DNA of 64,000 nucleotides, from assembly GCA_027623425.1 (NCBI GenBank), contig JAQBTH010000001.1, forward strand, positions 1,485 through 65,484. The letters run 5' to 3'. Source of the stretch: a bacterium (GTDB lineage Bacteria > Margulisbacteria > Marinamargulisbacteria > UBA817 > JAQBTH01). Below, piece by piece: positions 969 through 47,462 of the stretch (its first letter is position 1; each line of letters starts with the position of its first letter). The position numbers and the translations under genes were made by a program. Below the pieces are notes generated by a model, which saw only the letters and a list, made by a program, of their open reading frames with translations, did no database searches and was not told where the DNA came from.

Positions 969-1316
969 CTAATTGTATGGCCGTATATCGTCCAGGTGCA
1001 TTTCAACCGCACCAAAACGTACAATAATCAAATCAAAACGGCATTGGGTATCGCGCACCCCGTTAGCAACCAAATACAACTGAGCAGTACGCCACAAGTG
1101 CCGCCATTTCTTCTGATTAATCGCGTATCTGGCATCCATAAAGTCCGTCTCGTAGGTCTTCACCTCAACAAAAACCAAAAGTCCCTTGTAGCGACAAACA
1201 ATATCGATTTCCCCCACATTCCGGCGAAAGTTACGTTCCACCACCCGGTAACCTGCCTTTTCTAAAAAAGCGACGGCCACATCTTCCCCATCACGGCCTT
1301 TAATAATATGTTTCAT
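969..1316 (-). CDS. yraN: YraN/UPF0102 family putative endonuclease
   Basis: About 115 aa with a D-EIDIV-…-VFVEVK nuclease-like core; the ATG at 1316 is preceded by a GGGGGG SD; the longer track ORF start is unlikely; conserved downstream partner of rnhB. Confidence 0.7.
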   Translation of the reverse strand: MKHIIKGRDGEDVAVAFLEKAGYRVVERNFRRNVGEIDIVCRYKGLLVFVEVKTYETDFMDARYAINQKKWRHLWRTAQLYLVANGVRDTQCRFDLIIVRFGAVEMHLDDIRPYN

Positions 1317-1454
1317 ATATCCCCCCGAATTAAAGTTCTGAAGTAAGTGAACCATATCTGGAAACTCAAAACAAGGGAGTTTACAAAATAATTGCAATAT
1401 GTAAAATTATTAAGATAAATTTTTATTAATTATACGTTTATTTTGGAGATAAAT

Positions 1455-3194
1455 ATGCCAACTCCCTGCACACTAACCCCAAGACAAGTTTCAATTGGCA
1501 GTGAATTCATAAAAGGAAACCGCCTTTTTGATAGACTGCCTATAGTGATTCAAGAGACCCTAGTTAGAGAAATAAGAAGCCGATCTGCTGTAACACGAGG
1601 CGAAGCAGGATTGCCTCCCAATATTACCATTCCCGTATATGCACAATGGCATCCCCAATTAACTTGCACAGAAATCAGACACTGCGAAGCTGGGTATCCG
1701 AAACCCCTTTCAGTTAAATGGATCTCCCCATTAGAAGAGGCCATATCAAGATTAAATACCATGCTTGGCTTCCGAAGATTCCACCATTTCCCAAACGCCA
1801 GTGCGCCAGAAAACGGAAATAGTTACCGCATTACGATAATGCACACAGGAGCAGGACTAGGCGGCAGAACCATAGGGCATTCCAGTACAGTCAATTTGAA
1901 TGAACTCCACAATTATTCATGGCCCATTTCTGGAGTAATCGCCATTCCAGAAAATTCAAAAGGGTGCGACGATGATTTAGTCGCACTACTGCTACATGAA
2001 TTAGGGCATCAAATTGGAAGTGGGCATGCCCCATTTGATGGTAGTTGTGCCAAACTCATGGGTGCCAGAAGTGTGATGGAAGCCATACATAACCCCCACC
2101 ATGATAGCAACCCCTACACAACATTAATGCTGCAAACAGCGGACTCAGATGCTGCATATATGCGCCGTGAATTCCCAAGATTGCACAGCATGACACAGCT
2201 TTTTGCCAAAAGCTTGGATGAATGCCCACGTATTGAGTCTCCTGGAAACAGCGCACTGGGTGAATGCGGCACCAAACAAGACTTATGGTGCAATGTCGGT
2301 GAAGAGCTAAAATCTATCGTTCCCAAAAAATTAGAACCCGCCACTATAGTGGCATTCGCAGGCGGCATTATCCCAGCAATCAACCACAACCTATTACCAA
2401 ACCACAAACTATCTTTACCAGCCCAGCAGATTGCAAGCGCCACCCTGATTTTAACCGCAATCGCACTCACCCACCAAAACCAACCACTGCATACTAACGA
2501 AATACCCAGCCTAGAAACGGAACTCCTCATCGCATCGGCCACCTTAATAACGGGAAACCTACTGCGAACTGGCGCTACCTACACATCTACTAAATTATCT
2601 GGCTATTCCAAAGCCTCCATCGACATTATCTTCAATTCCATGTTCACACCTCTAATTTTTACCATTATCACATTAGCCGCTTCAGATACCCAAAACAAAA
2701 AAGAAACGTTTTCAACCAACATACAAGCCATGGTATTAGGCACACTATTAAACGCATTAATTGCCTGGCTAAGTGTGAAAATAGCATACTGGTCCGGTCT
2801 ACTTACATCCCCTACCCCCCCAACCAAAGTAGAAAACTTAGACAATGCATTCAGAATAAGAATTGACGCAGCAGACAGTGACGAAGAGCGACCAAGCTCG
2901 AATCGGCCACACAGCGCCGAGCAAAGAAGAGTGTATAGCCCAGATAATCCTTTAGGTTGGAGTGTCAGACAAGCCCCCAGATTGAGACAACGCTCAATTC
3001 TAAACTCACATCAATCCCCCTCCCCTGAAAAAGAAGAATCGCCAGATAAATACATTAAAGCGCTACCTAAACACCGCATAGAATCAACATCTACCGACAT
3101 CGAATCAGATACATCTCCCGCAAAATATGTCCCTAATTGGGATGGAAAAACAGCCCGAATAAACCCCGACCGCCATGACACGTTTCAAACGTAA
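1455..3194 (+). CDS. Hypothetical membrane protein with a metzincin-type zinc-protease motif (HELGHQIGSGH = HExxHxxGxxH), about four predicted TM helices and a Ser/Pro/Arg-rich C-terminal tail
   Basis: ATG at 1455 with GGAG SD 6 nt upstream (the track start at 1443 is TTG); motif encoded at 1995-2027; a possible Met-turn (SVMEA) follows; hydrophobic segments at residues ~300-440. Confidence 0.6.
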   Translation: MPTPCTLTPRQVSIGSEFIKGNRLFDRLPIVIQETLVREIRSRSAVTRGEAGLPPNITIPVYAQWHPQLTCTEIRHCEAGYPKPLSVKWISPLEEAISRLNTMLGFRRFHHFPNASAPENGNSYRITIMHTGAGLGGRTIGHSSTVNLNELHNYSWPISGVIAIPENSKGCDDDLVALLLHELGHQIGSGHAPFDGSCAKLMGARSVMEAIHNPHHDSNPYTTLMLQTADSDAAYMRREFPRLHSMTQLFAKSLDECPRIESPGNSALGECGTKQDLWCNVGEELKSIVPKKLEPATIVAFAGGIIPAINHNLLPNHKLSLPAQQIASATLILTAIALTHQNQPLHTNEIPSLETELLIASATLITGNLLRTGATYTSTKLSGYSKASIDIIFNSMFTPLIFTIITLAASDTQNKKETFSTNIQAMVLGTLLNALIAWLSVKIAYWSGLLTSPTPPTKVENLDNAFRIRIDAADSDEERPSSNRPHSAEQRRVYSPDNPLGWSVRQAPRLRQRSILNSHQSPSPEKEESPDKYIKALPKHRIESTSTDIESDTSPAKYVPNWDGKTARINPDRHDTFQT

Positions 3195-3764
3195 TTAAAA
3201 CAAACGCGCCTGTTTATATAAGTTAAAACTACGGCGATGTTGGGGGGTGAGCCCTAATCGTAAAATGGCATCATAATGGGCCTCTGTTCCATAGCCTTTA
3301 TGCCGTGAAAAATCATAACCTGGATACCGCAAGTCAAACCGTTGCATTAACCGGTCACGCATCACTTTTGCCACAATCGACGCAGCGGAAATACATGCAT
3401 GGAGAGAATCACCCTGAATAACGGCTTTCGTAGGCACAGACACACCGCAAGGAACTCGGTTGCCATCTACCATGCACTCGCGTGGCCGTATTCGTAACCT
3501 CCCTATCGCGCGCGAGAAGGAGCGCATAGTCGCATTCAAAATATTCACATCATCGATGAGCTTAGGCCCCACCATGGCCACAGAGATCACTGCGTCACTG
3601 GCTTTAAGTTCTTCAAAAAGGCGTTCTCGTGCTCTAGGAGACAATTTCTTAGAGTCATCCAGCCCCAAAAGTATAGTGTCACCCCGTAAAATCACAGCAG
3701 CAGCCACTACAGGCCCCACTAATGCACCCCGCCCTGCTTCGTCTACTCCAGCAACTAAATCCAT
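3195..3764 (-). CDS. rnhB: Ribonuclease HII
   Basis: MDLVAGVDEAGRGALVGPVVAAAVIL… N-terminus and DDSKKL motif diagnostic of RNase HII. Confidence 0.9.
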   Translation of the reverse strand: MDLVAGVDEAGRGALVGPVVAAAVILRGDTILLGLDDSKKLSPRARERLFEELKASDAVISVAMVGPKLIDDVNILNATMRSFSRAIGRLRIRPRECMVDGNRVPCGVSVPTKAVIQGDSLHACISAASIVAKVMRDRLMQRFDLRYPGYDFSRHKGYGTEAHYDAILRLGLTPQHRRSFNLYKQARLF

Positions 3765-3879
3765 GGGACAAGCCTACCATGCAAATGAGGCGAATATCTA
3801 CCATGCAAAATACCATGTAAAAACCATGGGGAACTGTGTTTCATCAGTAAGTTACTTATTCTGACTACTAGATAGGGTT

Positions 3880-4014: not shown

Positions 4015-4803
4015 ATGAAAAAGCCAAAACAAAAACTTGGGAAGATTATTAGAGACGCAGGGGAAATATTTAACGTTTCCTCAGCGGCCAAAGTATTGGA
4101 TGTCCCTAATACAGAGGCTGCTAAGATACTGGCGCGATGGACAAAACAGGGTTGGTTAACTCGTATTCAGCGAGGTTTATATGCCGTTGTCCCTATTGAA
4201 GCCTCTACAACAAATCAGGCACTTGAAGATGCATGGATTCTTGCACCGGAGCTTTTTGCACCTTGTTATATAGGAGGATGGTCTGCTGCAGAACATTGGG
4301 ATTATACGGAGCAAATATTTAGAGATATTTGTGTGATAACAGAGCGTGTTGTAGCGACTAAAAAGAAAGAGGTACACGGTATTAAATTCATAGTGACTCG
4401 AATAAAGAATGCGCTGGATTTTGGTACCAAAACTTTGTGGCGCCAAGATAAGAAAATCCTAATTTCTGACCCCCACAAAACTATTATTGATATGATGGTT
4501 AACCCCGAACTTGGCGGTGGCATTCAGCATACTATGGAATGTTTCTCTGCCTATCTTGAAAGCACGCACTTTGACCCTGATAAATTAGCTGATTATGCAG
4601 AAAAACTAAGTAATGGCGCTGTATATAAACGACTAGGTTATTTATGTGAAAGAAAATTGGGGGATACACACCTACTAACGAAAATCTGCAAATCAAATCT
4701 TAGCAAAGGTAATGCGTACCTAGACCCTAATATAAAGAATGGGGCTCTAATTTCACGTTGGCGGTTATTTGTGCCTGTTAATATTAGGGATAGTAATAAG
4801 TGA
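4015..4803 (+). CDS. AbiEi-like antitoxin / transcriptional regulator (type IV TA / abortive-infection family)
   Basis: N-terminal wHTH-like segment with the RGLYAVVP motif characteristic of the AbiEi_4 domain; stop codon overlaps the GTG start of the downstream nucleotidyltransferase (GTGA). Confidence 0.6.
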   Translation: MKKPKQKLGKIIRDAGEIFNVSSAAKVLDVPNTEAAKILARWTKQGWLTRIQRGLYAVVPIEASTTNQALEDAWILAPELFAPCYIGGWSAAEHWDYTEQIFRDICVITERVVATKKKEVHGIKFIVTRIKNALDFGTKTLWRQDKKILISDPHKTIIDMMVNPELGGGIQHTMECFSAYLESTHFDPDKLADYAEKLSNGAVYKRLGYLCERKLGDTHLLTKICKSNLSKGNAYLDPNIKNGALISRWRLFVPVNIRDSNK

Positions 4804-6074
4804 TTCCAAAACGAGAAATTCTTGAAATTGCCACTAACAGCAACCTTACGCCTCATGTCATAGAAAAGGATTATGTGCTGGGGTGGATGCTTGAAGGTAT
4901 CCACAATCATGCAGAACTCAAAGAATCATGGGCATTCAAAGGTGGAACATGTCTTAAAAAATGTTACTTTGAAACATATCGTTTCTCAGAAGACCTGGAT
5001 TTTACACTTACTGATAAATCCCATATCAATGAAAAGTTTCTAAAAGGTGTTTTTGCAGAAATAAGTGACTGGGTTTATGAATCTTCTGGCGTAGAGATTC
5101 CAGTTGATAGAATGATTTTTGAAATTTGCGAGAATCCCAGAGGCGTGATGTCATGTCAGGGAAGGCTGTTTTATCGAGGCCCAAACGCACCACAATCAAA
5201 TAAACAAATGCCACGTATAAAACTTGATCTGTCAGTAGATGAAGTAATTGTAGCAACTCCTGTTATTAACCTGGTTAGCCATTCCTACAGTGATCTTACA
5301 GAAGACGGCTTCCATATACGATGCTATTCATACGAAGAGGTCTTCGCAGAAAAAATTAGGGCACTAGGTGAAAGGACGCGCCCCAGAGATTTGTACGACG
5401 TTATAAATTTCTACCGCAGGCCAGAATCAGAAGAAAGATCGCCTGCAGTAAACAATATTTTACAGCAGAAATGTAAGTTTAAAGATATTAAAATTCCAAC
5501 ATATGCCGCCTTGGAAAAACATAGAGAAGATTGTGCTTCTGGTTGGCAACAAAAGTTGAGTCCCCAACTACAAGCACTTCCTCCTTTTGAATCGTACTGG
5601 GATGAGTTGCCTGGCTTCCTTGAATGGCTAAATAGTCCTGAATCAGTCGCGCCAAGAACACGCGAAATTATTCCATCAAAACCTGGGACCATTGTTGACA
5701 ACACGCCTATTGATTTAAGGAGTCTTGATAGTGGTACTTCACAGTTAAGCTTACTTAACAGGATTCGTTTTGCTGCCGCTAACCACCTATGTGTTGAGTT
5801 GGTTTATCGTAAGGAAGATGGAGAACAAAATACCTATATCATTGAGCCCTACTCATTAAGGCGGACATCAGATAATAACTTGTTACTATACTCAATGAAG
5901 CATGGCACTGCAGACGATGGAAGGCCCCGTGCATTCAGGACAGATCGTATTATAAGCGCGAAAGCCACAGATAAAACCTTTACGCCAAAATATATGGTCG
6001 AATTTTTACCCTCCTGCCCTGTAAACACCAGTATGCCTGTATCCAGCGGTAAAAAAAGTTTAGGGCTAACCTAA
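4800..6074 (+). CDS. AbiEii/AbiGii-family nucleotidyltransferase toxin (DUF1814) fused to a C-terminal WYL-like domain
   Basis: GTG start; motifs FKGGTCL, SEDLDF and RPRDLYD (NTase motifs I-III); C-terminal ~120 aa with Y..EDGE…IIEPYSL…LLLYSMK…RAFRTDRI pattern typical of WYL domains. Confidence 0.75.
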   Translation: MIPKREILEIATNSNLTPHVIEKDYVLGWMLEGIHNHAELKESWAFKGGTCLKKCYFETYRFSEDLDFTLTDKSHINEKFLKGVFAEISDWVYESSGVEIPVDRMIFEICENPRGVMSCQGRLFYRGPNAPQSNKQMPRIKLDLSVDEVIVATPVINLVSHSYSDLTEDGFHIRCYSYEEVFAEKIRALGERTRPRDLYDVINFYRRPESEERSPAVNNILQQKCKFKDIKIPTYAALEKHREDCASGWQQKLSPQLQALPPFESYWDELPGFLEWLNSPESVAPRTREIIPSKPGTIVDNTPIDLRSLDSGTSQLSLLNRIRFAAANHLCVELVYRKEDGEQNTYIIEPYSLRRTSDNNLLLYSMKHGTADDGRPRAFRTDRIISAKATDKTFTPKYMVEFLPSCPVNTSMPVSSGKKSLGLT

Positions 6075-6180
6075 GCCAGACAAGAAGAAGTAATTCCCCC
6101 AGAAGACAAAAAAGTAGCGAAAACCCAGTTAACCCCACACTATGCGTGAAGAAGGGTTCAATTTTTTATAGTGCAAGGCA

Positions 6181-6240
6181 AAACAACTAAAGTTACCGCA
6201 GGCGTATTTAACATACGTCGAGGACAGCTTTAGTTGTTTT
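6181..6240. repeat. Palindromic intergenic element (copy A of dispersed repeat CGCAGGCGTAT…ATACGTCGAGGACAGC) flanked by a perfect 12-bp inverted repeat AAACAACTAAAG/CTTTAGTTGTTT; probable bidirectional terminator between convergent abiEii and fabF
   Basis: Seen directly; the core recurs at 25447-25482 and 42194-42237. Confidence 0.6.
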
Positions 6241-6259
6241 AACGCCGCAATAGAAAAAA

Positions 6260-20557: not shown

Positions 20558-22591
20558 TTAAAATAGGGCTGTATGAGCGGGAGATGGTGCTGCATCTGAA
20601 ATTTCAGACAAAGGAGCAACACGTCTATTGTGCCTGCTGAGATGACCTAAGTCACCAAATCGTTGACTCTGTGGCAATCTGCTCCATAAAGTACTCAAGG
20701 CATTAACCACACGCTTTACACTTGCCTCCAACACATCTCGAACACCAAATCGAGGGGAAAGAATCAAGGTATCAACACAAGATTGTATGTCATCCCCATT
20801 TTCTTTAGTAGCGCCGCGCTTTCTGAGTAAAAGACCTCTAATATCATACTGACCGAATTTCGGATGCAAGGGGTTCCATTCACGAATCATCACCGGCATA
20901 ATCGCAGCCACCATCATCGCCAATTCACTCAACATAATATGTAGGGCTTGATCTTCTTCTTGCTCAGACAACACCATTACTGCCCGAACAATTTCATACG
21001 CCAACTTTACACCTCCCATATAAAGCAAAGGTTGTAACATTTTATAGAGATAATGCATCTTAGAAAAACAGACTGACTCACCTGACACCGAACACATCAG
21101 GGCCATACGGTGTTCTTTCAGCGTTTCTTTTACCACCTCTACCATCATAGTGGCCGTTGCTAGCCCCACCACCACATACCCTATCGTTTGTAGGTTATCG
21201 GCAACAGCGAGAAAATCAGTCTCATTTGATTGAATATATGTAGCTGGTCCGCGCGCTAACTCTGCTTTGCCATACAGCTTAAGTAACGGGTCTAAATGTT
21301 CAAAGGTAAACCCACGAGCACTACGCCACCCCGGCGATCCAGGATTTCCAACAAACACGCCAGGATCAACACTATCAAGAGTACGAGTTATATCAGTTCG
21401 GGACAACAACCCCGCTGTCGCTGCCAATTCCGAAAGCGCCAACTTAACAGGTAGTAGATCCATTACCCACCTCACGCCACCTGCAATCCCAGCTCCATAC
21501 TTAGCAAGAGTTAAGACTTCGCGTAGAACACCCACCCCCTGCTCGACAACCTGAAGCCGATCATGACGCAGAAGAGTTTGAGCTGTATCGGTGGCATGCA
21601 TTGGTAAATCCGGCGCCGTTTCAACATGCCTATTACCTATATGTTGTAACCACGAAAAACCAGGCAAGGCCTCTGGCTTTTCTCCTAAAATAAGTGGCGA
21701 TAACTCCGCTTGAACATCATTCGGCAATTCATTAAACGCCTCTAATAATTCTCGCTTTGCTTCTCGCATATCCTTAGTTTCACCATCTAACCACCCTGTG
21801 AGTAGCTTTGTTGCCGCAAACGCCACTAGTTTTAACTGAGGAGACAATAAGGAAGTAAAAAACTGCCCTAAATACACCGATAAAGGGCGCTCATCAGTAC
21901 GACCTTTTAGGTTAGATAATATATGATTTACAAGACTCATTGAAACCACATAAACCGATAACTTGATAGCGCTACTATGTTGACCATGTTGATTCAATCG
22001 CCGTTGCAAATCGGAAGCATTTCCACTACCCAGTTGCTCCAAAGCATCTGCTAAGCGAGTGGCCTGTCTTTGGGAATGAAGGGTGTTAAAATGCAAGAGC
22101 AACGGAAACAATCCCGAACCAAGCAAAAGACCCAATTTTTGCGATATTTTCGAAAAGGCCTCGATTTCAATATCTACCCCACTTAGCTTTTTTAATTCCG
22201 TTAATGCGATTAAAATTTTATCTTTATAAAACACATTATCTCGACCAAGATTTTGTAAATAATCAGCCATCACAAAATAATTAGATGCTTCTAAATTACG
22301 TTGGATATCAACAATTTGATTCAGGGCAACCTTAGCATGAGGCATAATTTTAACCTCAAGTCGTATTAATTCGCGAATTAGAGCGACAAAATTAGAAAGG
22401 ACCACGGCCCCCGCACCTAATTTTACTGCCGCCAACACATTATCTAGCTGCCGATTAAGAAATGAGGTCTTTTGTGAAACTGAAACATCTGTTTCTTGTA
22501 ATTCAGGAAAGTCAGTAGTCGCATCCGCAACACACACATCTCCTAAAAACAGAACATCATCCGAGCGTTCCACTGAAATTCTACGATACAT
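20558..22591 (-). CDS. Large hypothetical protein (~678 aa), effector-like; N-terminus MYRRISVERS is weakly similar to the shared RIA(T)S module
   Basis: The track ORF start (22717) overlaps tRNA-Ala; the ATG at 22591 is preceded by an AGGGAGGGGG SD. Confidence 0.6.
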   Translation of the reverse strand: MYRRISVERSDDVLFLGDVCVADATTDFPELQETDVSVSQKTSFLNRQLDNVLAAVKLGAGAVVLSNFVALIRELIRLEVKIMPHAKVALNQIVDIQRNLEASNYFVMADYLQNLGRDNVFYKDKILIALTELKKLSGVDIEIEAFSKISQKLGLLLGSGLFPLLLHFNTLHSQRQATRLADALEQLGSGNASDLQRRLNQHGQHSSAIKLSVYVVSMSLVNHILSNLKGRTDERPLSVYLGQFFTSLLSPQLKLVAFAATKLLTGWLDGETKDMREAKRELLEAFNELPNDVQAELSPLILGEKPEALPGFSWLQHIGNRHVETAPDLPMHATDTAQTLLRHDRLQVVEQGVGVLREVLTLAKYGAGIAGGVRWVMDLLPVKLALSELAATAGLLSRTDITRTLDSVDPGVFVGNPGSPGWRSARGFTFEHLDPLLKLYGKAELARGPATYIQSNETDFLAVADNLQTIGYVVVGLATATMMVEVVKETLKEHRMALMCSVSGESVCFSKMHYLYKMLQPLLYMGGVKLAYEIVRAVMVLSEQEEDQALHIMLSELAMMVAAIMPVMIREWNPLHPKFGQYDIRGLLLRKRGATKENGDDIQSCVDTLILSPRFGVRDVLEASVKRVVNALSTLWSRLPQSQRFGDLGHLSRHNRRVAPLSEISDAAPSPAHTALF

Positions 22592-22678
22592 AAATCCCCC
22601 TCCCTTAAAATATATAAAATTATATATACATAGCGTAAAGTTTGGGATGATGATTTCACCGTTAGAAAACAAAAAATT

Positions 22679-22754
22679 TGGTGGAGCTAAACGGGATCGA
22701 ACCGATGACCTCAACACTGCCAGTGTTGCGCTCTCCCAGCTGAGCTATAGCCCC
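22679..22754 (-). tRNA. tRNA-Ala (GGC)
   Basis: GGGGCTATAGCTCAGCTGGGAGAGC 5' half with the G3:U70 identity pair, anticodon loop CTGGCAG, encoded CCA. Confidence 0.9.
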
Positions 22755-25354: not shown

Positions 25355-25482
25355 ATTCCCGATCAAGCCGGGAATGACGATACCCGACCAACACGCAGGA
25401 GAAGAAGCCTTAAGCGCCTAGTGCCAGGCAGGAGGGCTACGAGGAACGCAGGCGTATTAATAATACGTCGAGGACAGCCTTA
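25355..25482. repeat. Composite intergenic repeat locus: hairpin motif TTCCCGATCAAGCCGGGAATGA (25355-25377) plus copy B of CGCAGGCGTATTAATAATACGTCGAGGACAGCCTT (25447-25482)
   Basis: Both motifs recur elsewhere in the window (17231-17250; 6196-6230; 42199-42236). Confidence 0.5.
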
Positions 25483-26979: not shown

Positions 26980-27984
26980 TTATTCTATGGAACTAGTGCG
27001 CCACAATTCTGACAATCTAGACGACCCATCAAAACCACCCACCACATAAATTTGATTTTTAAAAACCACCTGTTGATGGGCAGAACGACCACCCCATTTT
27101 ATGGAACGGCTCGCCAAACGCTGCCATTCAATTCCGTTTGTACTAGACCATGCATCACTTAAATAATTTCCATTTACTCCACCAGACACCACGATATTCC
27201 CTTCATACACGCAAACACTATGTAACGTACGGCCTGACCACTTATCATCAGTCAAGACCCGAGACCAAGCCGCCCCATCTTCACTGGTCCATATATCACT
27301 AGAAAACAAGTCATTTCGTCCCCCTAACAGCCATAACCGATCGCTATGCACAACCATTTTATGTTCGGTTATGCCGCCAAACGTAGCAGCATCTGTCACC
27401 TGCTCCCAGGTCACCCCATCCGTACTGCGCCACACATCCGATTGATTGGCGCCGTCTGAGCCTCCAACCAACCACAACGCATCTTGAAACGCCGTCACCG
27501 TGTGCGATTCACGACCACCCCAGGCGGCATTTTCAGTTACCGATTCCCACGACAATCCATCATCACTGACCCACACATCACTCAGATAGTCACCATTAGA
27601 ATAGCCCCCAATCAGCCATAGCTGCTCTTGGTACACAACAAGAGAATGGCCACTTCGCCCATCCCACGGCCTATCCGGCTCAACCGATGCCCAATCCACA
27701 CCATCGTCACTAAACCACACATCATTTTGGTAGCCACCAGTATACCCACCAACAAGCCATAATTTATCTTTAAAAACAACCACTCGATGCCCGGTACGAG
27801 CTGTCCATGCGCCATGATTAACACTTTCCCAGCCCGCAACTGAAATAAGTGATTGAGCGGTCACAATGGACTCACTACTTGAGCTAAGGTCTGTGATCGA
27901 CTCTGTCGCTGCGCCATTGCAACCAATGAACGCGACAGATGTAACAACAGCCAGAAGCCATACTTGGCACCGATATCCCCCCAT
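26980..27984 (-). CDS. Kelch-like beta-propeller lipoprotein (6-7 tandem ~48-aa repeats …R.GH..VVF.D.LWL.GG……DVW.S.DG..W…)
   Basis: Lipobox VAFIGC after an N-terminal signal peptide; tandem repeats visible in the translation. Confidence 0.65.
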   Translation of the reverse strand: MGGYRCQVWLLAVVTSVAFIGCNGAATESITDLSSSSESIVTAQSLISVAGWESVNHGAWTARTGHRVVVFKDKLWLVGGYTGGYQNDVWFSDDGVDWASVEPDRPWDGRSGHSLVVYQEQLWLIGGYSNGDYLSDVWVSDDGLSWESVTENAAWGGRESHTVTAFQDALWLVGGSDGANQSDVWRSTDGVTWEQVTDAATFGGITEHKMVVHSDRLWLLGGRNDLFSSDIWTSEDGAAWSRVLTDDKWSGRTLHSVCVYEGNIVVSGGVNGNYLSDAWSSTNGIEWQRLASRSIKWGGRSAHQQVVFKNQIYVVGGFDGSSRLSELWRTSSIE

Positions 27985-35563: not shown

Positions 35564-35640
35564 GGCGGCGTAGCTCAGTTGGTTAGAGCACACGGCTCAT
35601 ACCCGTGGCGTCACTGGTTCAAATCCAGTCGCCGCTACCA
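35564..35640 (+). tRNA. tRNA-Met (CAT), elongator-like
   Basis: GGCGGCG acceptor (G1:U72), anticodon stem-loop CACGG-CTCATAC-CCGTG, TTCAAAT T-loop, encoded CCA. Confidence 0.85.
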
Positions 35641-35664
35641 ACGACCACACAATTTAAGGGATTT

Positions 35665-38427
35665 ATGCTAAAACGACTACTTTCTTTACCACTATTATTT
35701 GCAGCTCTATTCATTGGCTTAAATGTAACGGTGCGATTATACCCGGAATGGCTATGGTTTAAATCCATGAATTACCAGGAACTCTGGTGGTTCGTTATTC
35801 AAAGCAAATTAACCACAATGCTCGTGTTTTCAAGCATTGCCTATGTGTTCATCAAAACCAATGTGTGGATAGCGCGAACCATATCAGAACGCACGCTTTC
35901 CCGCGGTGAACCTTTAAATTTCAAACCTCCGTTTGATTTTCTAAACCAATTGCATCGCGATTTCATGAATGCAAAACCCAAAAGCGGTTTCTTAGCCCTT
36001 TCCAAAAAAGCATATTCCTACTTAGTTGAGATCGGTTTAGTGGTATTGTCCCTACTATTAGGATTAATTGCCAAGAACTGGTGGCAAGATCTGTATATGG
36101 CTATAAATGCCACACCATTTGGAATCGCCGACCCTGTTTTTGGAAATGATGTGTCTTTCTATGTATTCCAATTACCCCTTTTAAATAACGTACAAACCTG
36201 GATTGGCTTGTTGTTTATGGCAACTGTTCTCGCCGTGTCCTGGGTCTATTTCAGCAAAAACATACTGGCATATCTATTCAGCAACGTACGCAATATCGGC
36301 ATTAAATTACACCTATTCTCATTGGTCTCTCTACTCATTGTTGGCGTTGCAATTGGATTTCAAATCAAAATATATGGGCTACTATATTCATCCGATGGCG
36401 CAGTATTTGGTGCCGCATACACCGACATACATGCCACTAAATTAGCCTACCGATTTATGCAAATCGCCTTGTTGGCGCAAGCTATCGTCCTGCTCATTTG
36501 GGGATTTAGAAGCAAATTACGCATTCCAGCGGCAGGCTTCGCCTTTATTTTCACAGGGTGGGTTCTGTTGGGAGTTCTATACCCTGGCATGGTTCAAAGC
36601 TACATCGTATCGCCGAATGAAATTGAAAAAGAACGCCAATACATTGAACGCAACATCAAATACACCCAAATTGCTTATGGCCTAGACCGCATTAAAGTCG
36701 TAGATTACCCCGCTAAAACAAATTTGTCTGCACAAAGCCTGAAAGACAACCAAGACATATTAGATAATATCCGGCTGTGGAACCCAGAACCGCTAAAACA
36801 AACCTTTAAACAACTTCAAGAAATTCGTCTGTACTACGAGTTTACAAATATGGACGTGGACCGTTACGTTATCAACAATTCATTACAGCAAGTCATGCTA
36901 AGTGCGAGAGAACTAGACATTAGCCAAATCACCGAGCAAGCGCAAACATGGGTTAATCAGCGCCTCATTTACACACACGGTTACGGGGCAGTTATGTCGC
37001 CCGTACATAAAATCACACCCGAAGGCCTTCCTTACTTTTACATTAAAGATTTACCACCAATCAGCAGTATTAACGTTCAAATTACACGCCCTGGTATCTA
37101 CTTTGGCGAAGTAAACAATAATTACGTCATTACAAATAGCAAACAACCCGAGTTCGACTACCCAAAGGGAAGCACGAATGAACACACTCGCTATACAGGA
37201 AAAGGGGGCATCAAACTTGATTCGTTCTTCAAACGGGTCCTTTTCGCATTTAAATTCTCTGAAATCAAACTGATTATCAGCCGCTACATTACCAATGACT
37301 CTAAAATATTATTTGACCGACAAATAAATCGCATATCAAAAAAGATTGCCCCGTTCCTAATCTACGATCAAGATCCTTACCTTGTGATTACCGACGAGGG
37401 TGAAATGGTATGGATGCAAGACGCGTACACAATCTCTCGCATGTTCCCCTATTCCGAACCCTACGAAAACTCACGTGTAAACTATATTCGCAACGCCATC
37501 GTGCTAACAATTGATGCCTATGATGGCACCACAAACTTCTATTTAAAAGACCCAACAGATCCGATTGCACAAACATTAAGTAAAGTGTATCCAGGCCTAA
37601 TTAAACCGTTTAGTACCATGCCAGCCACACTGCAAAATCACATTCGTTACCCAAAAGATTTATTCACCATACAATCAGTCATGTATAGCACCTACCACAT
37701 GACTGACCCACAGGTATTTTACAACCGAGAAGACCTTTGGGAATTACCAAAAGAAATTTACGGCGAGCAAGAGCAAGTCATGAAACCCTACTATATCGTG
37801 CTAAAACACCCTGATGATTCAGAAGCCAGCTTTTCGGTCATGTTACCATTTACGCCTACCCATAAAAACAACATGATTGCATGGTTAAACGCTAAATCCG
37901 ATCTAAAGAATTATGGTGAACTCACTATCTACAAAATTCCAAAAGAACGCACCATTCTAGGGCCAACACAAATTGAATCGCGCATCGACCAAGACACCAC
38001 GATTTCCCAAAGCCTAACACTGTGGGGCCAAATGGGCTCTCGGGTTATCCGTGGGAATTTAATGGTTGTTCCAATCGATGGCACATTAATTTATGCCGAA
38101 CCTATTTATCTACAAGCCACGCAAAGCAAACTCCCTGAACTTAAACGGGTTATTTTAGCCTACAATGATCGCGTTGTGATGGAATCATCTTTAGCACTTG
38201 CTCTAGATGCCTTACATTCTGGCAGACCATCTCAAGGACAAACAGATACCCGCTCGCAGGTCATAAAGCCCGGTGAAACACTTAACAAACTCATACAACA
38301 ATTAATTCAAGAAAACGCGGCACTCAAACGGCATCGCCAATCTGGAAATTGGAATGAGTTTGGAAACAGCCTTAATAATATTGACAAACTCGTTCTTGAT
38401 ATACAAAAATATCAAACACCGAACTAG
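35665..38427 (+). CDS. UPF0182-family large polytopic membrane protein
   Basis: ~920 aa; N-terminal third has multiple TM helices, large C-terminal soluble region; the track GTG start at 35605 overlaps tRNA-Met, so ATG 35665 is preferred. Confidence 0.7.
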   Translation: MLKRLLSLPLLFAALFIGLNVTVRLYPEWLWFKSMNYQELWWFVIQSKLTTMLVFSSIAYVFIKTNVWIARTISERTLSRGEPLNFKPPFDFLNQLHRDFMNAKPKSGFLALSKKAYSYLVEIGLVVLSLLLGLIAKNWWQDLYMAINATPFGIADPVFGNDVSFYVFQLPLLNNVQTWIGLLFMATVLAVSWVYFSKNILAYLFSNVRNIGIKLHLFSLVSLLIVGVAIGFQIKIYGLLYSSDGAVFGAAYTDIHATKLAYRFMQIALLAQAIVLLIWGFRSKLRIPAAGFAFIFTGWVLLGVLYPGMVQSYIVSPNEIEKERQYIERNIKYTQIAYGLDRIKVVDYPAKTNLSAQSLKDNQDILDNIRLWNPEPLKQTFKQLQEIRLYYEFTNMDVDRYVINNSLQQVMLSARELDISQITEQAQTWVNQRLIYTHGYGAVMSPVHKITPEGLPYFYIKDLPPISSINVQITRPGIYFGEVNNNYVITNSKQPEFDYPKGSTNEHTRYTGKGGIKLDSFFKRVLFAFKFSEIKLIISRYITNDSKILFDRQINRISKKIAPFLIYDQDPYLVITDEGEMVWMQDAYTISRMFPYSEPYENSRVNYIRNAIVLTIDAYDGTTNFYLKDPTDPIAQTLSKVYPGLIKPFSTMPATLQNHIRYPKDLFTIQSVMYSTYHMTDPQVFYNREDLWELPKEIYGEQEQVMKPYYIVLKHPDDSEASFSVMLPFTPTHKNNMIAWLNAKSDLKNYGELTIYKIPKERTILGPTQIESRIDQDTTISQSLTLWGQMGSRVIRGNLMVVPIDGTLIYAEPIYLQATQSKLPELKRVILAYNDRVVMESSLALALDALHSGRPSQGQTDTRSQVIKPGETLNKLIQQLIQENAALKRHRQSGNWNEFGNSLNNIDKLVLDIQKYQTPN

Positions 38428-40157: not shown

Positions 40158-41117
40158 ATGGAACGTTACGCAAGCTACGGTGGTTCTGCGACGCGTGAAG
40201 CAAAACTTCAAGCGGCACAAAGCAACGATCGAACTAAAACCGCCTCGGAACATGGGCTAGAAATAGGTAGTCTGTTTAAAAAAAGCATATCAACTAATGA
40301 TGCCATTTTTGGGTTCTATGAAAGCCAGATCAAGGCAATTCGCTCGATTACCAGCAGCATACGAAGCGAAGAGGAGTATACAGCATTAGAACATCTTTTA
40401 GAAAAGATCCTACAACACGCATCTGCAATAAGTACGGTGATGCAATTAATAGATGGCTCTATTACAGCCCAAATAGTTGAGGATGCTGAAGATAGTGGAG
40501 AAAGTAAAGAAGCGGCGGACGTATCATTACAAGATCAACTTAAAGAGTTAAGTGGAAACCCTATTGCTATGGACTTATGGAAGTATATGAATGAGCACCC
40601 TAATCCAAAATTTCACCTGACAAATCCTAATGGAACATTAAAATACGATAGTAGCACTCTAAAAGAAGGAGAAGAGTTGCGTAAACAGTTATTTGGAAGA
40701 CTATCAAAAGCATTTTTACATATGCAATGTGAACAAGGACATCATGTGTTTTTTGAATTATCATCAGACTTTGGTAGCGAAAGCGAAACAATGGATTTTT
40801 TTGTGGGTCAAAAAACGGGTGGCAGCGATAGTCTAGGACTGAATGACCGAGACCGAGACCGAGAACGAAAAACAACCACAAGAGAACTAATGACCGTGTT
40901 TAGAAATCGGGATAATCCGATCATACGAAAAGGCGTCGTTTTCATGAAAGACGGAAAAGTGTGCGAGCCACCATGGGTAACACACCCAGAAAAGTTTGAG
41001 CGCTACAGACAGCAACAAATCGCAAAACTAACCGGTGCTAGCGGTTCCCCAACAGATCAACACATGCGAATGCAAGTTCTAGACAAAAAAGCAATTCTGC
41101 AGCGCCTCCACTCATAG
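40158..41117 (+). CDS. Hypothetical hydrophilic protein (319 aa; DRDRDRER stretch)
   Basis: ORF with AAGGAG SD; no recognisable domain. Confidence 0.5.
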   Translation: MERYASYGGSATREAKLQAAQSNDRTKTASEHGLEIGSLFKKSISTNDAIFGFYESQIKAIRSITSSIRSEEEYTALEHLLEKILQHASAISTVMQLIDGSITAQIVEDAEDSGESKEAADVSLQDQLKELSGNPIAMDLWKYMNEHPNPKFHLTNPNGTLKYDSSTLKEGEELRKQLFGRLSKAFLHMQCEQGHHVFFELSSDFGSESETMDFFVGQKTGGSDSLGLNDRDRDRERKTTTRELMTVFRNRDNPIIRKGVVFMKDGKVCEPPWVTHPEKFERYRQQQIAKLTGASGSPTDQHMRMQVLDKKAILQRLHS

Positions 41118-42193: not shown

Positions 42194-42237
42194 AGTTACC
42201 GCAGGCGTATATAAAATACGTCGAGGACAGCTTTTTT
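42194..42237. repeat. Copy C of dispersed repeat AGTTACCGCAGGCGTAT-ATAAA-ATACGTCGAGGACAGCTTTTTT, just downstream of the tmRNA 3' end
   Basis: Shares AGTTACCGCAGGCGTAT…ATACGTCGAGGACAGCTT with 6191-6230. Confidence 0.55.
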
Positions 42238-43266: not shown

Positions 43267-44577
43267 ATGGCCCAACGCGGCATACTTGAGTACGATGCAA
43301 AGTCATTAGTAACACGTCTTTGGAACGATTATATTGGCGACTCACTAATCTGCAATTTTCGCAGCGTATTAGTGGAAACGGAAGATGAATTAGACACCGC
43401 AGCAAAAGCCCAAGACTGGCTCAATCAGCCTGGCTTAGTCGTAAAACCCGACATGCTATTTGGAAAACGCGGCAAAAACAACCTTGTGTTATACAAAACA
43501 ACCACAGCCGGAGACGTATCATTGGCCGATGCAAAAAAATGGATACACGAAAAACGCATCAACGAAATCGCCTTATTAAATGGTGAAAAAGGCTGGTTGC
43601 GTCGGTTCATTATAGAGCCGTTTGTGCCCCACTCTATAGAGCAAGAGTACTACATTAGTTTTAGAAGCGAAACAGAAAACGATGTCATGGCAATATCAGC
43701 CTGTGGCGGCGTGGATATTGAAGAAAATTGGGACACCGTTACCGAAGTATTCATACCTGTATTAAGCGAAGATAAAGAAGCTAAGAATCTAATTTTGTCT
43801 CAAATTCCAGATGAAATCCAAGAACGCAATGCCGTTGGCACGCTCGCCGTTGGTCTTTACAGTTTATTTAAAGACCTACATTTCGCCTACCTCGAATTAA
43901 ACCCATTTGTCATAGAAGGCAATACCATTCATTTATTAGATATGGTCGCCAAATTAGATGATACCGCTGGCTATTTAATGCAAGAAGAATGGCAAGGCAT
44001 CGAGTTTCCGTCTGGCTTTGGGCGCGCAGGCTTAACAAAAGAAGAGAAATTCATTACAGAACTAGACGAAAAATCAGGTGCCAGTTTAAAACTAACCATC
44101 CTTAACCCAAAAGGCGTCGTATGGACATTAGTAGCAGGTGGCGGCGCATCCGTTGTATTTGCGGACACGATTGCCAACACATGGGGAGCAAATGAGCTGG
44201 CTAATTACGGCGAGTATTCTGGCAACCCCAACACCGAAGAAACCTACTACTACACAAAAACAGTTCTAGACTTAATGACCAGAGAAAAAGACGATAAAGG
44301 CCGCAACAAAATTCTACTTATTGGTGGCGCCATCGCAAACTTCACTGATGTCGCAAGCACCTTTAAAGGCATCATTCAGGCCATGGAAGAATACGCCCCT
44401 AAAATGCGCGAAATTGGCGTGCAAATTTATGTACGTCGCGGTGGGCCTAACTATGAAATTGGCCTTCGTAACATTAAAACAGCCGCCAAGAAATTAAAGC
44501 TACCCATTGATGTATACGGACCAGAAACCCATATGACTGATATCGTCGCAATTGCGATGGAAGACGCCAACGCCTAG
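43267..44577 (+). CDS. aclB: ATP-citrate lyase, beta/small subunit (ATP-grasp)
   Basis: Strong similarity to the ACLY N-terminal part: …LDEKSGASLKLTILNPKGVVWTLVAGGGASVVFADTI…NELANYGEYSG…LMTREK…IGGAIANFTDVASTFKGI…YVRRGGPNY…. Confidence 0.9.
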   Translation: MAQRGILEYDAKSLVTRLWNDYIGDSLICNFRSVLVETEDELDTAAKAQDWLNQPGLVVKPDMLFGKRGKNNLVLYKTTTAGDVSLADAKKWIHEKRINEIALLNGEKGWLRRFIIEPFVPHSIEQEYYISFRSETENDVMAISACGGVDIEENWDTVTEVFIPVLSEDKEAKNLILSQIPDEIQERNAVGTLAVGLYSLFKDLHFAYLELNPFVIEGNTIHLLDMVAKLDDTAGYLMQEEWQGIEFPSGFGRAGLTKEEKFITELDEKSGASLKLTILNPKGVVWTLVAGGGASVVFADTIANTWGANELANYGEYSGNPNTEETYYYTKTVLDLMTREKDDKGRNKILLIGGAIANFTDVASTFKGIIQAMEEYAPKMREIGVQIYVRRGGPNYEIGLRNIKTAAKKLKLPIDVYGPETHMTDIVAIAMEDANA

Positions 44578-44592
44578 GCAAAGGAGACTAAA

Positions 44593-46452
44593 ATGAGCGC
44601 ATTATTTACACCTGATAGCAAAGCAATATTTTGGAACAATAACGTAAAAGCAATTCAACGCATGTTGGATTATGGCTATATATGCCGACGCGAAAGCCCA
44701 TCAGTTGTGGCCATCGTTCACCCAAGCAGCCAATCCAGTGTTCAAAAGTTTTTCTATGGCCCCCATGAAGTATTAATTCCCATATATAAAACCATTTCAG
44801 ATGCGGCAGAAGCCCATCCAGAAGCGGATTGCTTCTTAAACTTTGCATCATTCCGCACCGCATGGGAAACCACCATGAAAGCCATGGAATTTAATAACAT
44901 CAAAACCTTAATGGTAACCGCTGAAGGCATACCAGAACGACTAACCCGTATTATGGTCGCCACAGCACGTAAAAAAGGCAAGATGCTGGTGGGTCCCTCA
45001 ACAGTAGGCGCCATCACTCCTGGTGCGTTGAAAACAGGAAATATCGGCGGCACGATCGAAAATATTGCCAAAACAAAACTACACCGCCCAGGATCTGCTG
45101 GGCTGGTTACAAAATCCGGTGGGTTATTTAACGAACTCGCCAACATCATTTCAATCAATGGCGATGGCATTGCAGAAGGTGTTGCCGTTGGTGGTGATCG
45201 CTACCCTGGTTCTATTTTCATTGACCATTTATTACGCATGGAGAAAAACCCAACAGTTAAATATTTTGTACTTTTAGGTGAAGTAGGCGGAACGGATGAA
45301 TATGATGTTGTTGAGGCATACAAAGAAGGAAAACTAACAAAACCAATCGTGGCGCTATGCACAGGTACTGTTGCCAAACACTTATCTAGCGGCGTTCAGT
45401 TTGGGCACGCTGGGGCAAAAGCCAACTCCGATTTGGAAACCGCTGATGCAAAAAACAAGGCAATGAAAGACGCAGGCTTCAATGTACCTGACAACTTCAA
45501 TGAGTTCCCAGTGATGATCAAAGACACCTACGAAGACTTAGTGGCTAAAAACCAAGTAAGCGCCGAAGAAATTAGTGATCTTCCTGAAATTCCTGAAGAT
45601 TATTCCGCGGCTAAAAAAGAAGGCCGAGTGCGCAAACAAACCAACTTCATATGCACGATTTCCGATGACCGAGGCGATGAAGCCGTATACGCAGGTGTAC
45701 CAATTTCATCATTAGCCACGCCAGAAACAGGCTACGGAATTGGCGATGTCATTACCCTACTTTGGTTTAAAAAGCGCTATCCAAAATGGGCAACTGATTT
45801 TATTGAAACTGTACTTAAAACCGTTGCAGACCACGGCCCAGCAGTATCTGGCGCTCACAACACTCGCGTCACTAGCCGTGCCGGAAAAGACCTAGTTAGC
45901 TCAGTGGTAACCGGGTTACTGGCAATCGGCCCGCGCTTTGGTGGTGCCATTGATGGTGCTGCTAAATATTTCAAATATGGCGCCGACCAGCAATTATCGG
46001 CACGCGGATTTGTAAATTACATGAAAGAAAAAGGCGAACCAATTCCCGGGATCGGCCATCGTATTAAATCGTTGAAAAATCCAGATCTTCGCGTGAAAGC
46101 ATTAATTGAATACGCAAAGGCGAACTTTCCATCTACCGACCTGTTGGATTATGCCCGCGAGATTGAACAAGTCACCACCAGCAAAAAAGACACATTGATT
46201 TTAAACGTCGATGGCGCCGTTGGTGTGTTACTAGTAGACATGTGGAACGCACTTGGGTACTCCGATGCTGAAATTGACCAAATGATCGATTCTGGGGCGT
46301 TAAACGCATTCTTTGTTCTTGGGCGCACCATTGGGTTCATTGGCCACGCTTTGGACGAGAAACGATTAAATATGCCGCTCTATCGTCATGAATTGGATGA
46401 CATTCTGTATGATGTGGATGTCGCCGAAGAAATGACGGTTAGAGTAAAGTAA
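44593..46452 (+). CDS. aclA: ATP-citrate lyase, alpha/large subunit (CoA-binding, phosphohistidine, citryl-CoA lyase domain)
   Basis: 619 aa; GHAGAKAN phosphohistidine loop; C-terminal citrate-synthase-like domain; AAGGAG SD; 15 nt after aclB. Confidence 0.9.
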   Translation: MSALFTPDSKAIFWNNNVKAIQRMLDYGYICRRESPSVVAIVHPSSQSSVQKFFYGPHEVLIPIYKTISDAAEAHPEADCFLNFASFRTAWETTMKAMEFNNIKTLMVTAEGIPERLTRIMVATARKKGKMLVGPSTVGAITPGALKTGNIGGTIENIAKTKLHRPGSAGLVTKSGGLFNELANIISINGDGIAEGVAVGGDRYPGSIFIDHLLRMEKNPTVKYFVLLGEVGGTDEYDVVEAYKEGKLTKPIVALCTGTVAKHLSSGVQFGHAGAKANSDLETADAKNKAMKDAGFNVPDNFNEFPVMIKDTYEDLVAKNQVSAEEISDLPEIPEDYSAAKKEGRVRKQTNFICTISDDRGDEAVYAGVPISSLATPETGYGIGDVITLLWFKKRYPKWATDFIETVLKTVADHGPAVSGAHNTRVTSRAGKDLVSSVVTGLLAIGPRFGGAIDGAAKYFKYGADQQLSARGFVNYMKEKGEPIPGIGHRIKSLKNPDLRVKALIEYAKANFPSTDLLDYAREIEQVTTSKKDTLILNVDGAVGVLLVDMWNALGYSDAEIDQMIDSGALNAFFVLGRTIGFIGHALDEKRLNMPLYRHELDDILYDVDVAEEMTVRVK

Positions 46453-46649: not shown

Positions 46650-47462
46650 GTGGACGGCGATCACAGAAAAACACTAAACATCATACGCAACCCCTTACCT
46701 AGACACGATCATGCGCAATTCTATCCTATTTACACCTGGTACACATGCCCCACTGCACCACAAGACTGCGTACTTTCCCAAGAATCCGAACAAGAACAAA
46801 GCGCGCTTAGACGAGCTGATTTCAACGGGCAAAAGTTCTATCGAACTGGCATTTATCTTGTAATATCCGTTCCCGCATATGCTAGCGCCAGCGCCAATAG
46901 TGTAGGAAATATTGACGAGTACAAAGGCGATATCAGTGAGCAACCAAGACAGATTATCTGCGACGAAGTTCTATTAGCCCGCCATATCGAAAGCCCAAAC
47001 GTCATCTATTTCGCATACTACAACCCTTATTTTCAAAATATACTAACACAACGTCACCCAATACCTACACTGGACTATATTCAAGCCAATAAAGAAACAT
47101 GGAACACACCCTTCAGAGAATTACCAACAGAAACACAAGCACTTAGTCTATTGGCGGATTCCGTGAATAACCATATCGTAAGCCTAAATTTTAAGCACCT
47201 CGCAGTACGCACAGATGAATCCAGCAGACTAACAACTTATGTGCGCGACTCCCTTAGATTCGATGTTCCTAACTCTGGATTATACAATGTTCGCCCCATA
47301 CCTCCTGAAACAGAACCTCCTCCAGCAGAAGAAACGAAACCATCACCAACACACCCCTCGCATCAACATAATTACCGATACGCAGTCAAAAAATGGGAAG
47401 CCTTCAAGGCACAAGAACGCCGCATGGCTTTACTGAGACAAGCGCCACAAACATGTGTATAA
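46650..47462 (+). CDS. Hypothetical protein (270 aa) with a Pro-rich C-terminus
   Basis: ORF only. Confidence 0.5.
   Translation: MDGDHRKTLNIIRNPLPRHDHAQFYPIYTWYTCPTAPQDCVLSQESEQEQSALRRADFNGQKFYRTGIYLVISVPAYASASANSVGNIDEYKGDISEQPRQIICDEVLLARHIESPNVIYFAYYNPYFQNILTQRHPIPTLDYIQANKETWNTPFRELPTETQALSLLADSVNNHIVSLNFKHLAVRTDESSRLTTYVRDSLRFDVPNSGLYNVRPIPPETEPPPAEETKPSPTHPSHQHNYRYAVKKWEAFKAQERRMALLRQAPQTCV

Follow-up and report, generated by a model that had tools for sequence, protein, structure and literature searches.

A candidate membrane-anchored metallopeptidase of divergent metzincin type encoded between rnhB and yraN in a marinamargulisbacterial lineage

The metzincin clan of peptidases is marked by a conserved Met-turn downstream of the third metal ligand (PMC1266349, PMC3427221), and its fold (PMC3427221) combines a five-stranded sheet with a backing helix, an active-site helix and a lower subdomain made of helices. 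Among the described members, the archaemetzincins (M54) are small metzincins in which the HExxHxxGxxH motif is followed by a cysteine and then by C-x-M (PMC3427221). Here we describe a gene, referred to as X, that lies between rnhB and yraN in a 64,000-nt stretch of marinamargulisbacterial contig JAQBTH010000001.1 (the whole of this stretch is called the window; coordinates are given in Table 1) and that encodes an orphan protein with such a motif. We propose, with a probability of roughly one half, that X is a lineage-restricted, fast-evolving accessory gene for a polytopic, membrane-anchored zinc metallopeptidase of a divergent metzincin type.

The residues HELGHQIGSGH are the sole HExxHxxGxxH in the six frames of the window, so the exact metzincin signature reported in a first reading of this DNA (the original prediction) is present and unique. 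The pattern appeared in none of 300 shuffles, and 8e-4 occurrences per 20,000 aa are expected from the amino-acid composition of the window. The only homologue of X, encoded by a 394-aa open reading frame (ORF) on a 2-kb contig from a relative (L083), aligns to residues 78-251 with 26% identity (BLASTP E 2e-6 over 189 aa), and similarity between the two genes is undetectable at the DNA level. The motif block is the best-conserved stretch between the two proteins: HExxHxxG, the next glycine, Pro193, Cys198 and an upstream I-A-I strand are all retained. The methionine first proposed as the Met-turn (M208 in SVMEA, nt 2076-2078) is not conserved, the homologue having F in that column. M202 lies four residues after the conserved Cys198, and the homologue reads CSCM at this site; thus, both proteins carry a methionine 2-4 residues past a conserved cysteine, and CAKLM is our preferred candidate. 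Further downstream, a conserved P-Y...Q-T-x-D block (residues 220-230) resembles the Q-D-D-I-D-G-I-Q with which the metzincin C-terminal helix begins in matrix metalloproteinases (MMPs), and might serve as a lead.

Profile searches gave Reprolysin_5 as the best family match of X, with an E-value of 0.0017-0.016 across 85 residues and a score of 19 bits where the cut-off is 27, along with sub-threshold matches to Reprolysin_3 and Peptidase_M10. The homologue alone matched Reprolysin (0.041), Peptidase_M8 (0.093) and Peptidase_M7 (0.17), all below threshold. Of the three families that the original prediction had singled out for such searches, Reprolysin was thus matched below threshold by the homologue and Peptidase_M10 by X, and Astacin was not matched by X even at E <=10. 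X had no Pfam match to M48 or M56. When the PDB was searched with a two-sequence profile, 11 of 17 matches were metzincins, none of them significant; these included leishmanolysin (the best, E 0.052), acutolysin A and C (0.06-0.09), BaP1 and archaemetzincin. A low-confidence AlphaFold2 model has a helix at residues 92-103, strands at 124-130, 138-143 and 158-165, and a helix at 173-188, an order of elements compatible with the metzincin fold. Overall, we judge with moderate confidence that X would work like a metzincin; we file it in no existing family and read it as the probable founder of a small, divergent, membrane-anchored metzincin-like one.

The reprolysin/adamalysin-like enzymes (MEROPS M12B; Reprolysin, Reprolysin_3 and Reprolysin_5), which provide the best sub-threshold profile and PDB matches for X and its homologue, share with X a HELGHxxGxxH helix after hydrophobic residues and a cysteine soon after the third histidine, followed by a methionine (compare C-I-M in snake-venom enzymes). 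However, X scores 13-19 bits where the gathering cut-offs are 21-27, has Ala in place of the Asp after the third histidine, lacks a signal peptide and a prodomain, and carries a polytopic C-terminal anchor instead of disintegrin or Cys-rich domains. The leishmanolysin (M8) match, which is not significant, takes in the strand as well as the helix, because GVINIP...THEMAHALG aligns with GVIAIP...LHELGHQIG. Unlike X, leishmanolysin has its third histidine after a long insert and is a glycosylphosphatidylinositol-anchored surface protein. Membrane-type MMPs and ADAMs resemble X in having a membrane-tethered metzincin catalytic domain and a proline-rich or basic tail. As type I proteins, however, they carry a signal peptide and a prodomain, expose the catalytic domain outside the cell and cross the membrane once, whereas X has five helices, no signal peptide and no detectable homology to them beyond the motif. 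In HtpX (M48) and BlaR1/MecR1 (M56), polytopic bacterial zinc proteases whose catalytic domains are cytoplasmic, several helices hold an HExxH domain at the inner membrane face, a likeness in how the protein proposed here would work; unlike X, these enzymes belong to the gluzincins, whose third ligand is Glu, and their helices lie N-terminal to or around the domain.

Archaemetzincins share HExxHxxGxxH with X and give a weak PDB match (2x7m, E 0.74), and their Cys-rich C-terminal subdomain can be listed as a further likeness. On the other hand, they have no membrane helices, and X has Ala after the third histidine and one nearby cysteine only. Their fingerprint, HEXXHXXGXXHCX4CXMX17CXXC (PMC3427221), is absent from X, which reads HELGHQIGSGHAPFDGSCAKLM and misses the four-Cys pattern. 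Matrixin and astacin signatures are likewise absent from X. Matrixins have a Ser after the third histidine, an ALMYP Met-turn, a PRCGxPD cysteine switch and a signal peptide; in X, the Peptidase_M10 match (E 0.19) spans 23 residues and covers the motif only, the sequence from the third histidine is HAPF, and neither ALMYP nor PRCG nor a signal peptide was found. Astacins read HExxHxxGFxHExxRxDRD and have an SxMHY Met-turn, and X shows neither a Glu after the third histidine nor MHY.

The predicted architecture, a zinc motif in a soluble domain followed by hydrophobic helices and a disordered tail, is as unusual as originally stated, and the tail (aa 451-579) is indeed rich in S, P and R (12, 12 and 10%). 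Hydropathy, together with the helices of the low-confidence model, gives five hydrophobic helices rather than the earlier estimate of about four; the last two alone pass a strict hydropathy threshold. The homologue likewise has five hydrophobic segments. As judged by hydropathy only, X lacks a signal peptide, a lipobox and an N-terminal anchor, since no 15-residue segment reaches a hydropathy of 1.0 before residue 292. An N-terminal domain of 290 residues without a signal peptide is normally not translocated. Both X (1455-1469) and its homologue (L083 1911-1925) start with M-x-x-x-C (MPTPC and MAEIC); this is not a lipobox and, in a sample of two sequences, may be due to chance.

In the mechanism that we propose, one zinc would be bound by H181, H185 and H191, with E182 as the general base. 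The strand GVIAIP (aa 160-165) would precede the active-site helix, and Cys198 and M202 would lie under the metal site. As the first membrane helix, at residue 294, has no signal peptide ahead of it, the catalytic domain is predicted to face the cytoplasm. The five helices would tether this domain to the membrane, where it could cleave some membrane-proximal substrate, and five spans would place the tail outside the cell, with a charge distribution that is ambiguous in this respect.

The frame of X is open over 1443-3194 (+), giving 583 aa counted from a TTG and 579 aa from the ATG at 1455; the NCBI record MDA1352844.1 (hypothetical protein) has the same frame, with 549 aa from a GTG at 1545. 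On a 22-kb contig of an independent ENA assembly (L081), gene calling gave an identical product of 579 aa, so that two assemblies carry the 579-codon frame unbroken. The frame antisense to X is broken into ORFs of at most 142 aa. The 583-codon frame, the same protein on the independent contig and the protein-level homologue in L083 show that X is a gene despite its weak codon statistics (see below). The 138-nt yraN-X intergenic region contains a near-palindromic TTTACA-N16-TGTAAA (1378-1407) that scores as a promoter on both strands, the minus-strand site at 1405-1378 being almost palindromic with the X site, and these sites may form a bidirectional X/yraN promoter. Promoter-like sites are not more numerous than in shuffled sequence. 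The element is absent from the rnhB-yraN spacer of the closest relative (L082), and the insertion may have given yraN a new promoter.

Relatives of X are very few. A word-indexed search of 5.8 billion proteins, HMMER over 1.84 billion representatives and phmmer against the PDB returned X itself or nothing, and no relatives were found in a viral-contig scan, in a tblastn search of plasmids and phages, or in two metagenome scans, which also missed L083 itself. With rnhB as an anchor, only two close relatives were found, L082 and L083; the top rnhB match from the GTDB species representatives reaches no more than 52% identity. At 90% identity, even the clusters of AcpP and L32 contain no named relative, which points to a deep, barely sampled lineage.

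L082 (rnhB 86-88% and yraN ~83% identical to the window, the latter at the nucleotide level) is collinear over rpmF-plsX-fabH-fabD-fabG-acpP-fabF-rnhB-yraN, with spacers of 64 nt between rnhB and yraN and 181 nt between fabF and rnhB, and contains neither X nor an AbiEi/AbiEii pair that lies on the other side of rnhB in the window. The claim that X splits an otherwise adjacent gene pair therefore holds. In L083, the ORF of the homologue occupies the position that X has in the window: it lies 19 nt downstream of rnhB and is convergent with it. The rnhB identities (window-L082 86%, window-L083 78%, L082-L083 75%) place L083 outside the window-L082 pair, and the simplest history would be that the common ancestor already had X here and that L082 later lost it; on one short marker, two independent insertions, or a replacement, would also be compatible with these values. 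With identities of 26% for X and 78% for rnhB, the divergence of X is about five times as fast.

The composition of X is native (GC content 0.454 versus 0.449 for the genome; GC at third codon positions, GC3, 0.404 versus 0.407), and no repeats, integrase or transposase flank it. An insertion by a mobile element with target duplications was considered and rejected, as the flanks are without repeats. Given the homologue at the same convergent position in L083, X is not likely to be a recent import. The comparison of relatives, a check named in the original prediction, thus speaks in part against acquisition: the homologue occupies the same site in L083, as expected of a resident gene, and X is absent from L082, as expected of an acquired one. 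We regard X as a patchy but old resident of the lineage, an accessory gene that splits an old gene pair. A dispensable role, related to conflict or niche rather than to housekeeping, is suggested by its fast divergence and patchiness, by the AbiE neighbour and by the interrupted copies described below.

Several observations weigh against the reading proposed here. At the motif, the L083 homologue reads HEIAHALGHGSH, with histidines at +9 and +12 but not at +11, so that in the only homologue the third histidine is one position out of register. No match of X or the homologue reaches a curated family threshold, and the sub-threshold metzincin matches centre on the motif, are largely driven by it and are partly circular. 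The AlphaFold2 single-sequence models have predicted local distance difference test scores (pLDDT) of 32.7 and 37.9, with Foldseek output amounting to noise, and the positive-inside rule leaves the topology of X ambiguous. In combined codon and amino-acid usage, X scores lower than any of 28 comparison genes; by synonymous codons, it falls towards the bottom of the range of 26 reference genes (z = -2.0), and one antisense frame scores as well as the sense frame or better. In L083, the 394-aa ORF has ahead of it an in-frame TGA (1683-1700), which aligns close to Thr70/Cys71 in X, and another 75 codons; recoding of this codon was rejected, TGA being an ordinary stop in 5 of 28 genes in the window genome. 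In a strain variant (L084), a 10-nt deletion between short CACAGC repeats (window 2180-2189; L084 ~845) splits X into products of 242 and 334 aa. This copy differs from X by four substitutions, two synonymous and two non-synonymous, with one adjoining the deletion; these are too few for a ratio of non-synonymous to synonymous substitution rates (dN/dS). Two of the four gene copies read, among which two come from near-identical assemblies, are thus interrupted, which suggests that X is dispensable. Both interruptions and the absence of X from L082 are compatible with decay, and the adjacency of AbiE, on which the proposed role draws in part, is circumstantial, X having no PADLOC match. Together with the tail, which the homologue does not share, the out-of-register histidine, the codon scores, the absence and the interruptions would also fit a decaying or non-catalytic orphan under relaxed constraint and with no important role, in which the motif is a relic or binds metal without proteolysis. 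We consider this unlikely, if well worth keeping in mind, as two assemblies have the 579-codon frame without a break, as HExxHxxG, the flanking strand and the downstream cysteine are the best-conserved features even though DNA similarity has been erased, and as the five-helix layout is conserved. The interrupted copies are weighted lightly because they come from short, poor contigs; L084 contains runs of N, starts with ~60 nt of unrelated GC-rich sequence and has a split rnhB as well, so assembly artefacts are possible. Rapid divergence, absence and interruptions agree with a conflict-related gene that is dispensable and also with a decaying one.

The setting of X raises the more specific idea that X acts against phages or in abortive infection, as an effector protease that is anchored in the membrane and belongs, with the nearby AbiE pair, to a small defence islet centred on rnhB. 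Accessory insertions lie on either side of rnhB, each opposite to the fab-rnhB-yraN strand and each missing from L082, the AbiE pair is confidently identified (PADLOC E-values of 2.9e-106 and 2e-168 for AbiEi and AbiEii), and fast divergence with patchy presence is typical of defence genes. We judge this improbable: neither X nor its homologue has a match in PADLOC (PADLOC-DB 2.0) or PHROGs, the short L083 contig cannot show whether AbiE accompanies the homologue, and X and AbiE were probably not acquired together, since rnhB separates them and their composition differs (GC3 0.40 versus 0.32-0.34). We give still less credence to the eukaryote-like, matrixin- or astacin-like surface protease or effector of the original prediction, or to extensions of it in which the protein is ADAM-like, is secreted or, in one version, is delivered to a host cell and enters host membranes by means of its helices. 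Its appeal lies in the motif with its reprolysin-like sub-threshold matches, in the fast evolution of X, its opposite strand and its absence from the nearest relative, in the M-x-x-x-C start of both homologues, and in the Kelch-repeat and large DnaJ-domain proteins also encoded in the window. Yet the matches among 1.84 billion representatives include nothing significant, to a eukaryotic or any other protein, and X shows no sign of a eukaryotic origin; Astacin is not matched and Peptidase_M10 is matched over the motif helix only. Nor does a surface location agree with the lack of a signal peptide and of any hydrophobic segment before residue 292, or with the lack of secretion-system genes among the 20 large window ORFs examined. 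The GC content and GC3 are native, the homologue sits at the same locus in an outgroup relative, and the complete fatty-acid synthesis encoded in the window, along with ATP-citrate lyase, homoserine dehydrogenase and PBP2, can be taken as fitting a free-living cell. Least credible of all is a chance ORF or antisense shadow frame, which the codon statistics of the antisense frame would allow; against it stand the sense frame open for 583 codons where the antisense pieces are short, the ribosome-binding site, and a protein-level homologue in the same orientation and with the same architecture.

If X is an active metzincin, it would represent an inward-facing, polytopic, membrane-anchored family in a clan that is almost wholly secreted or extracellular, and such enzymes could hide as orphans below every profile threshold. 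More tentatively, X and its L083 homologue might found an unrecognised metzincin family, with a cytoplasmic domain devoid of a signal peptide, a five-helix anchor, a distribution limited to one deep aquatic lineage and a divergence roughly five times that of rnhB, which would suit a role in genetic conflict (phage defence or competition), although we would not expect all of these features to hold. The significance is limited by an uncultured organism, two family members, and the fact that neither substrate nor phenotype can be deduced from sequence.

Table 1. Features of gene X and its surroundings, in positions of the window. The coordinates of the last four rows were listed jointly and are assigned to the genes in the order in which these were named.
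Feature	Position (nt)	Strand	Residues or product	Basis or remark
yraN	969-1316	-	UPF0102 endonuclease	Pfam UPF0102, 6.7e-26; divergent from X
Promoter-like site TTTACA-16-TAAAAT	1380-1407	+	upstream of X	consensus match only
Ribosome-binding site GGAG	1445-1448	+	6 nt upstream of ATG 1455	read from sequence
Gene X	1455-3194	+	orphan protein, 579 aa	TAA stop at 3192-3194
N-terminal soluble domain of X (predicted)	1455-2333	+	aa 1-293	8 Cys; no signal peptide
Putative zinc-binding motif HELGHQIGSGH	1995-2027	+	aa 181-191 (H181, E182, H185, G188, H191)	
Preferred Met-turn candidate CAKLM	2046-2060	+	Cys198 to M202	alignment with L083 homologue
Five hydrophobic helices of X (predicted)	2334-2807	+	aa 294-312, 321-342, 351-378, 386-413, 421-451	
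S/P/R/D-rich tail of X	2808-3191	+	predicted coil	absent from L083 homologue
rnhB	3195-3764	-	RNase HII	Pfam RNase_HII, 4.8e-40; convergent with X
AbiEi	4015-4803	+	antitoxin	PADLOC match; between fabF and rnhB
AbiEii	4800-6074	+	toxin fused to C-terminal WYL domain	PADLOC match
ATP-citrate lyase	43267-46452		two subunits	
UPF0182 gene	35605-38427		membrane protein	
Kelch-repeat gene	26980-27984		Kelch-repeat protein	
DnaJ-domain gene	14356-16821		821-aa protein	DnaJ domain is the sole recognisable part

Both flanking genes of X are strongly matched in Pfam and NCBIfam. X lies on the strand opposite to the fab-rnhB-yraN genes, and its stop codon abuts that of rnhB with no spacer at all. The rnhB-yraN pair had been described as widely conserved, and this was borne out in part. 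Of 80 rnhB loci, 24 have yraN downstream on the same strand at a distance of up to 6 kb, and in 11 of these, from many phyla, the distance is only 17-112 nt; the alphaproteobacterial loci lack it. Thus, the pairing is common and not universal. The pair is split in other lineages as well, by genes unrelated to X: Actinomycetota have DUF2469 and a Tad-like gene there, a metagenome-assembled genome of Defluviitaleaceae has FliK- and FlhB-like genes, and Selenomonas has an uncharacterised 737-aa ORF. An hmmsearch of all ORFs in the 80 loci with the two-sequence profile found no relatives of X.

The AbiE pair is a second insertion, also on the strand opposite to fab-rnhB-yraN, and is poorer in GC than the rest of the window (GC content 0.40). 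Its position across rnhB from X hints at a small accessory or defence islet; in the otherwise collinear fab-rnhB-yraN block, rnhB accepts accessory genes on both flanks. Upstream of the rnhB start (~3793-3830, minus strand) are three tandem T(T/G)xCATGGTA-like copies, TTTTTACATGGT, ATTTTGCATGGTA and ATTTGCATGGTA, which are also kept in L082 and may be an operator or promoter element. YraN has been reported as an endonuclease that processes the transformation D-loop with the ComM helicase (bioRxiv 10.1101/2024.02.06.579203); in the window, yraN is followed by a convergent atpC, and comM does not adjoin it.

Elsewhere in the window, the large ORFs at 11768-12838, 20558-22717, 40158-41117 and 46650-47462 have no Pfam match. 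A 31-nt core, GCAGGCGTATnTAAnATACGTCGAGGACAGC, occurs three times on the plus strand (6198-6228, 25448-25478 and 42201-42231) where none is expected by chance. All three copies are intergenic (after fabF, beside a symporter gene and beside the transfer-messenger RNA gene), and each forms a hairpin inside a different outer stem that still pairs; the element at 6170-6250 folds at -31.8 kcal/mol (z = -6.2). No Rfam family matches the element, which is also present after fabF in L082 and could be a repetitive extragenic palindromic (REP)-like element, a terminator or a small structured RNA.

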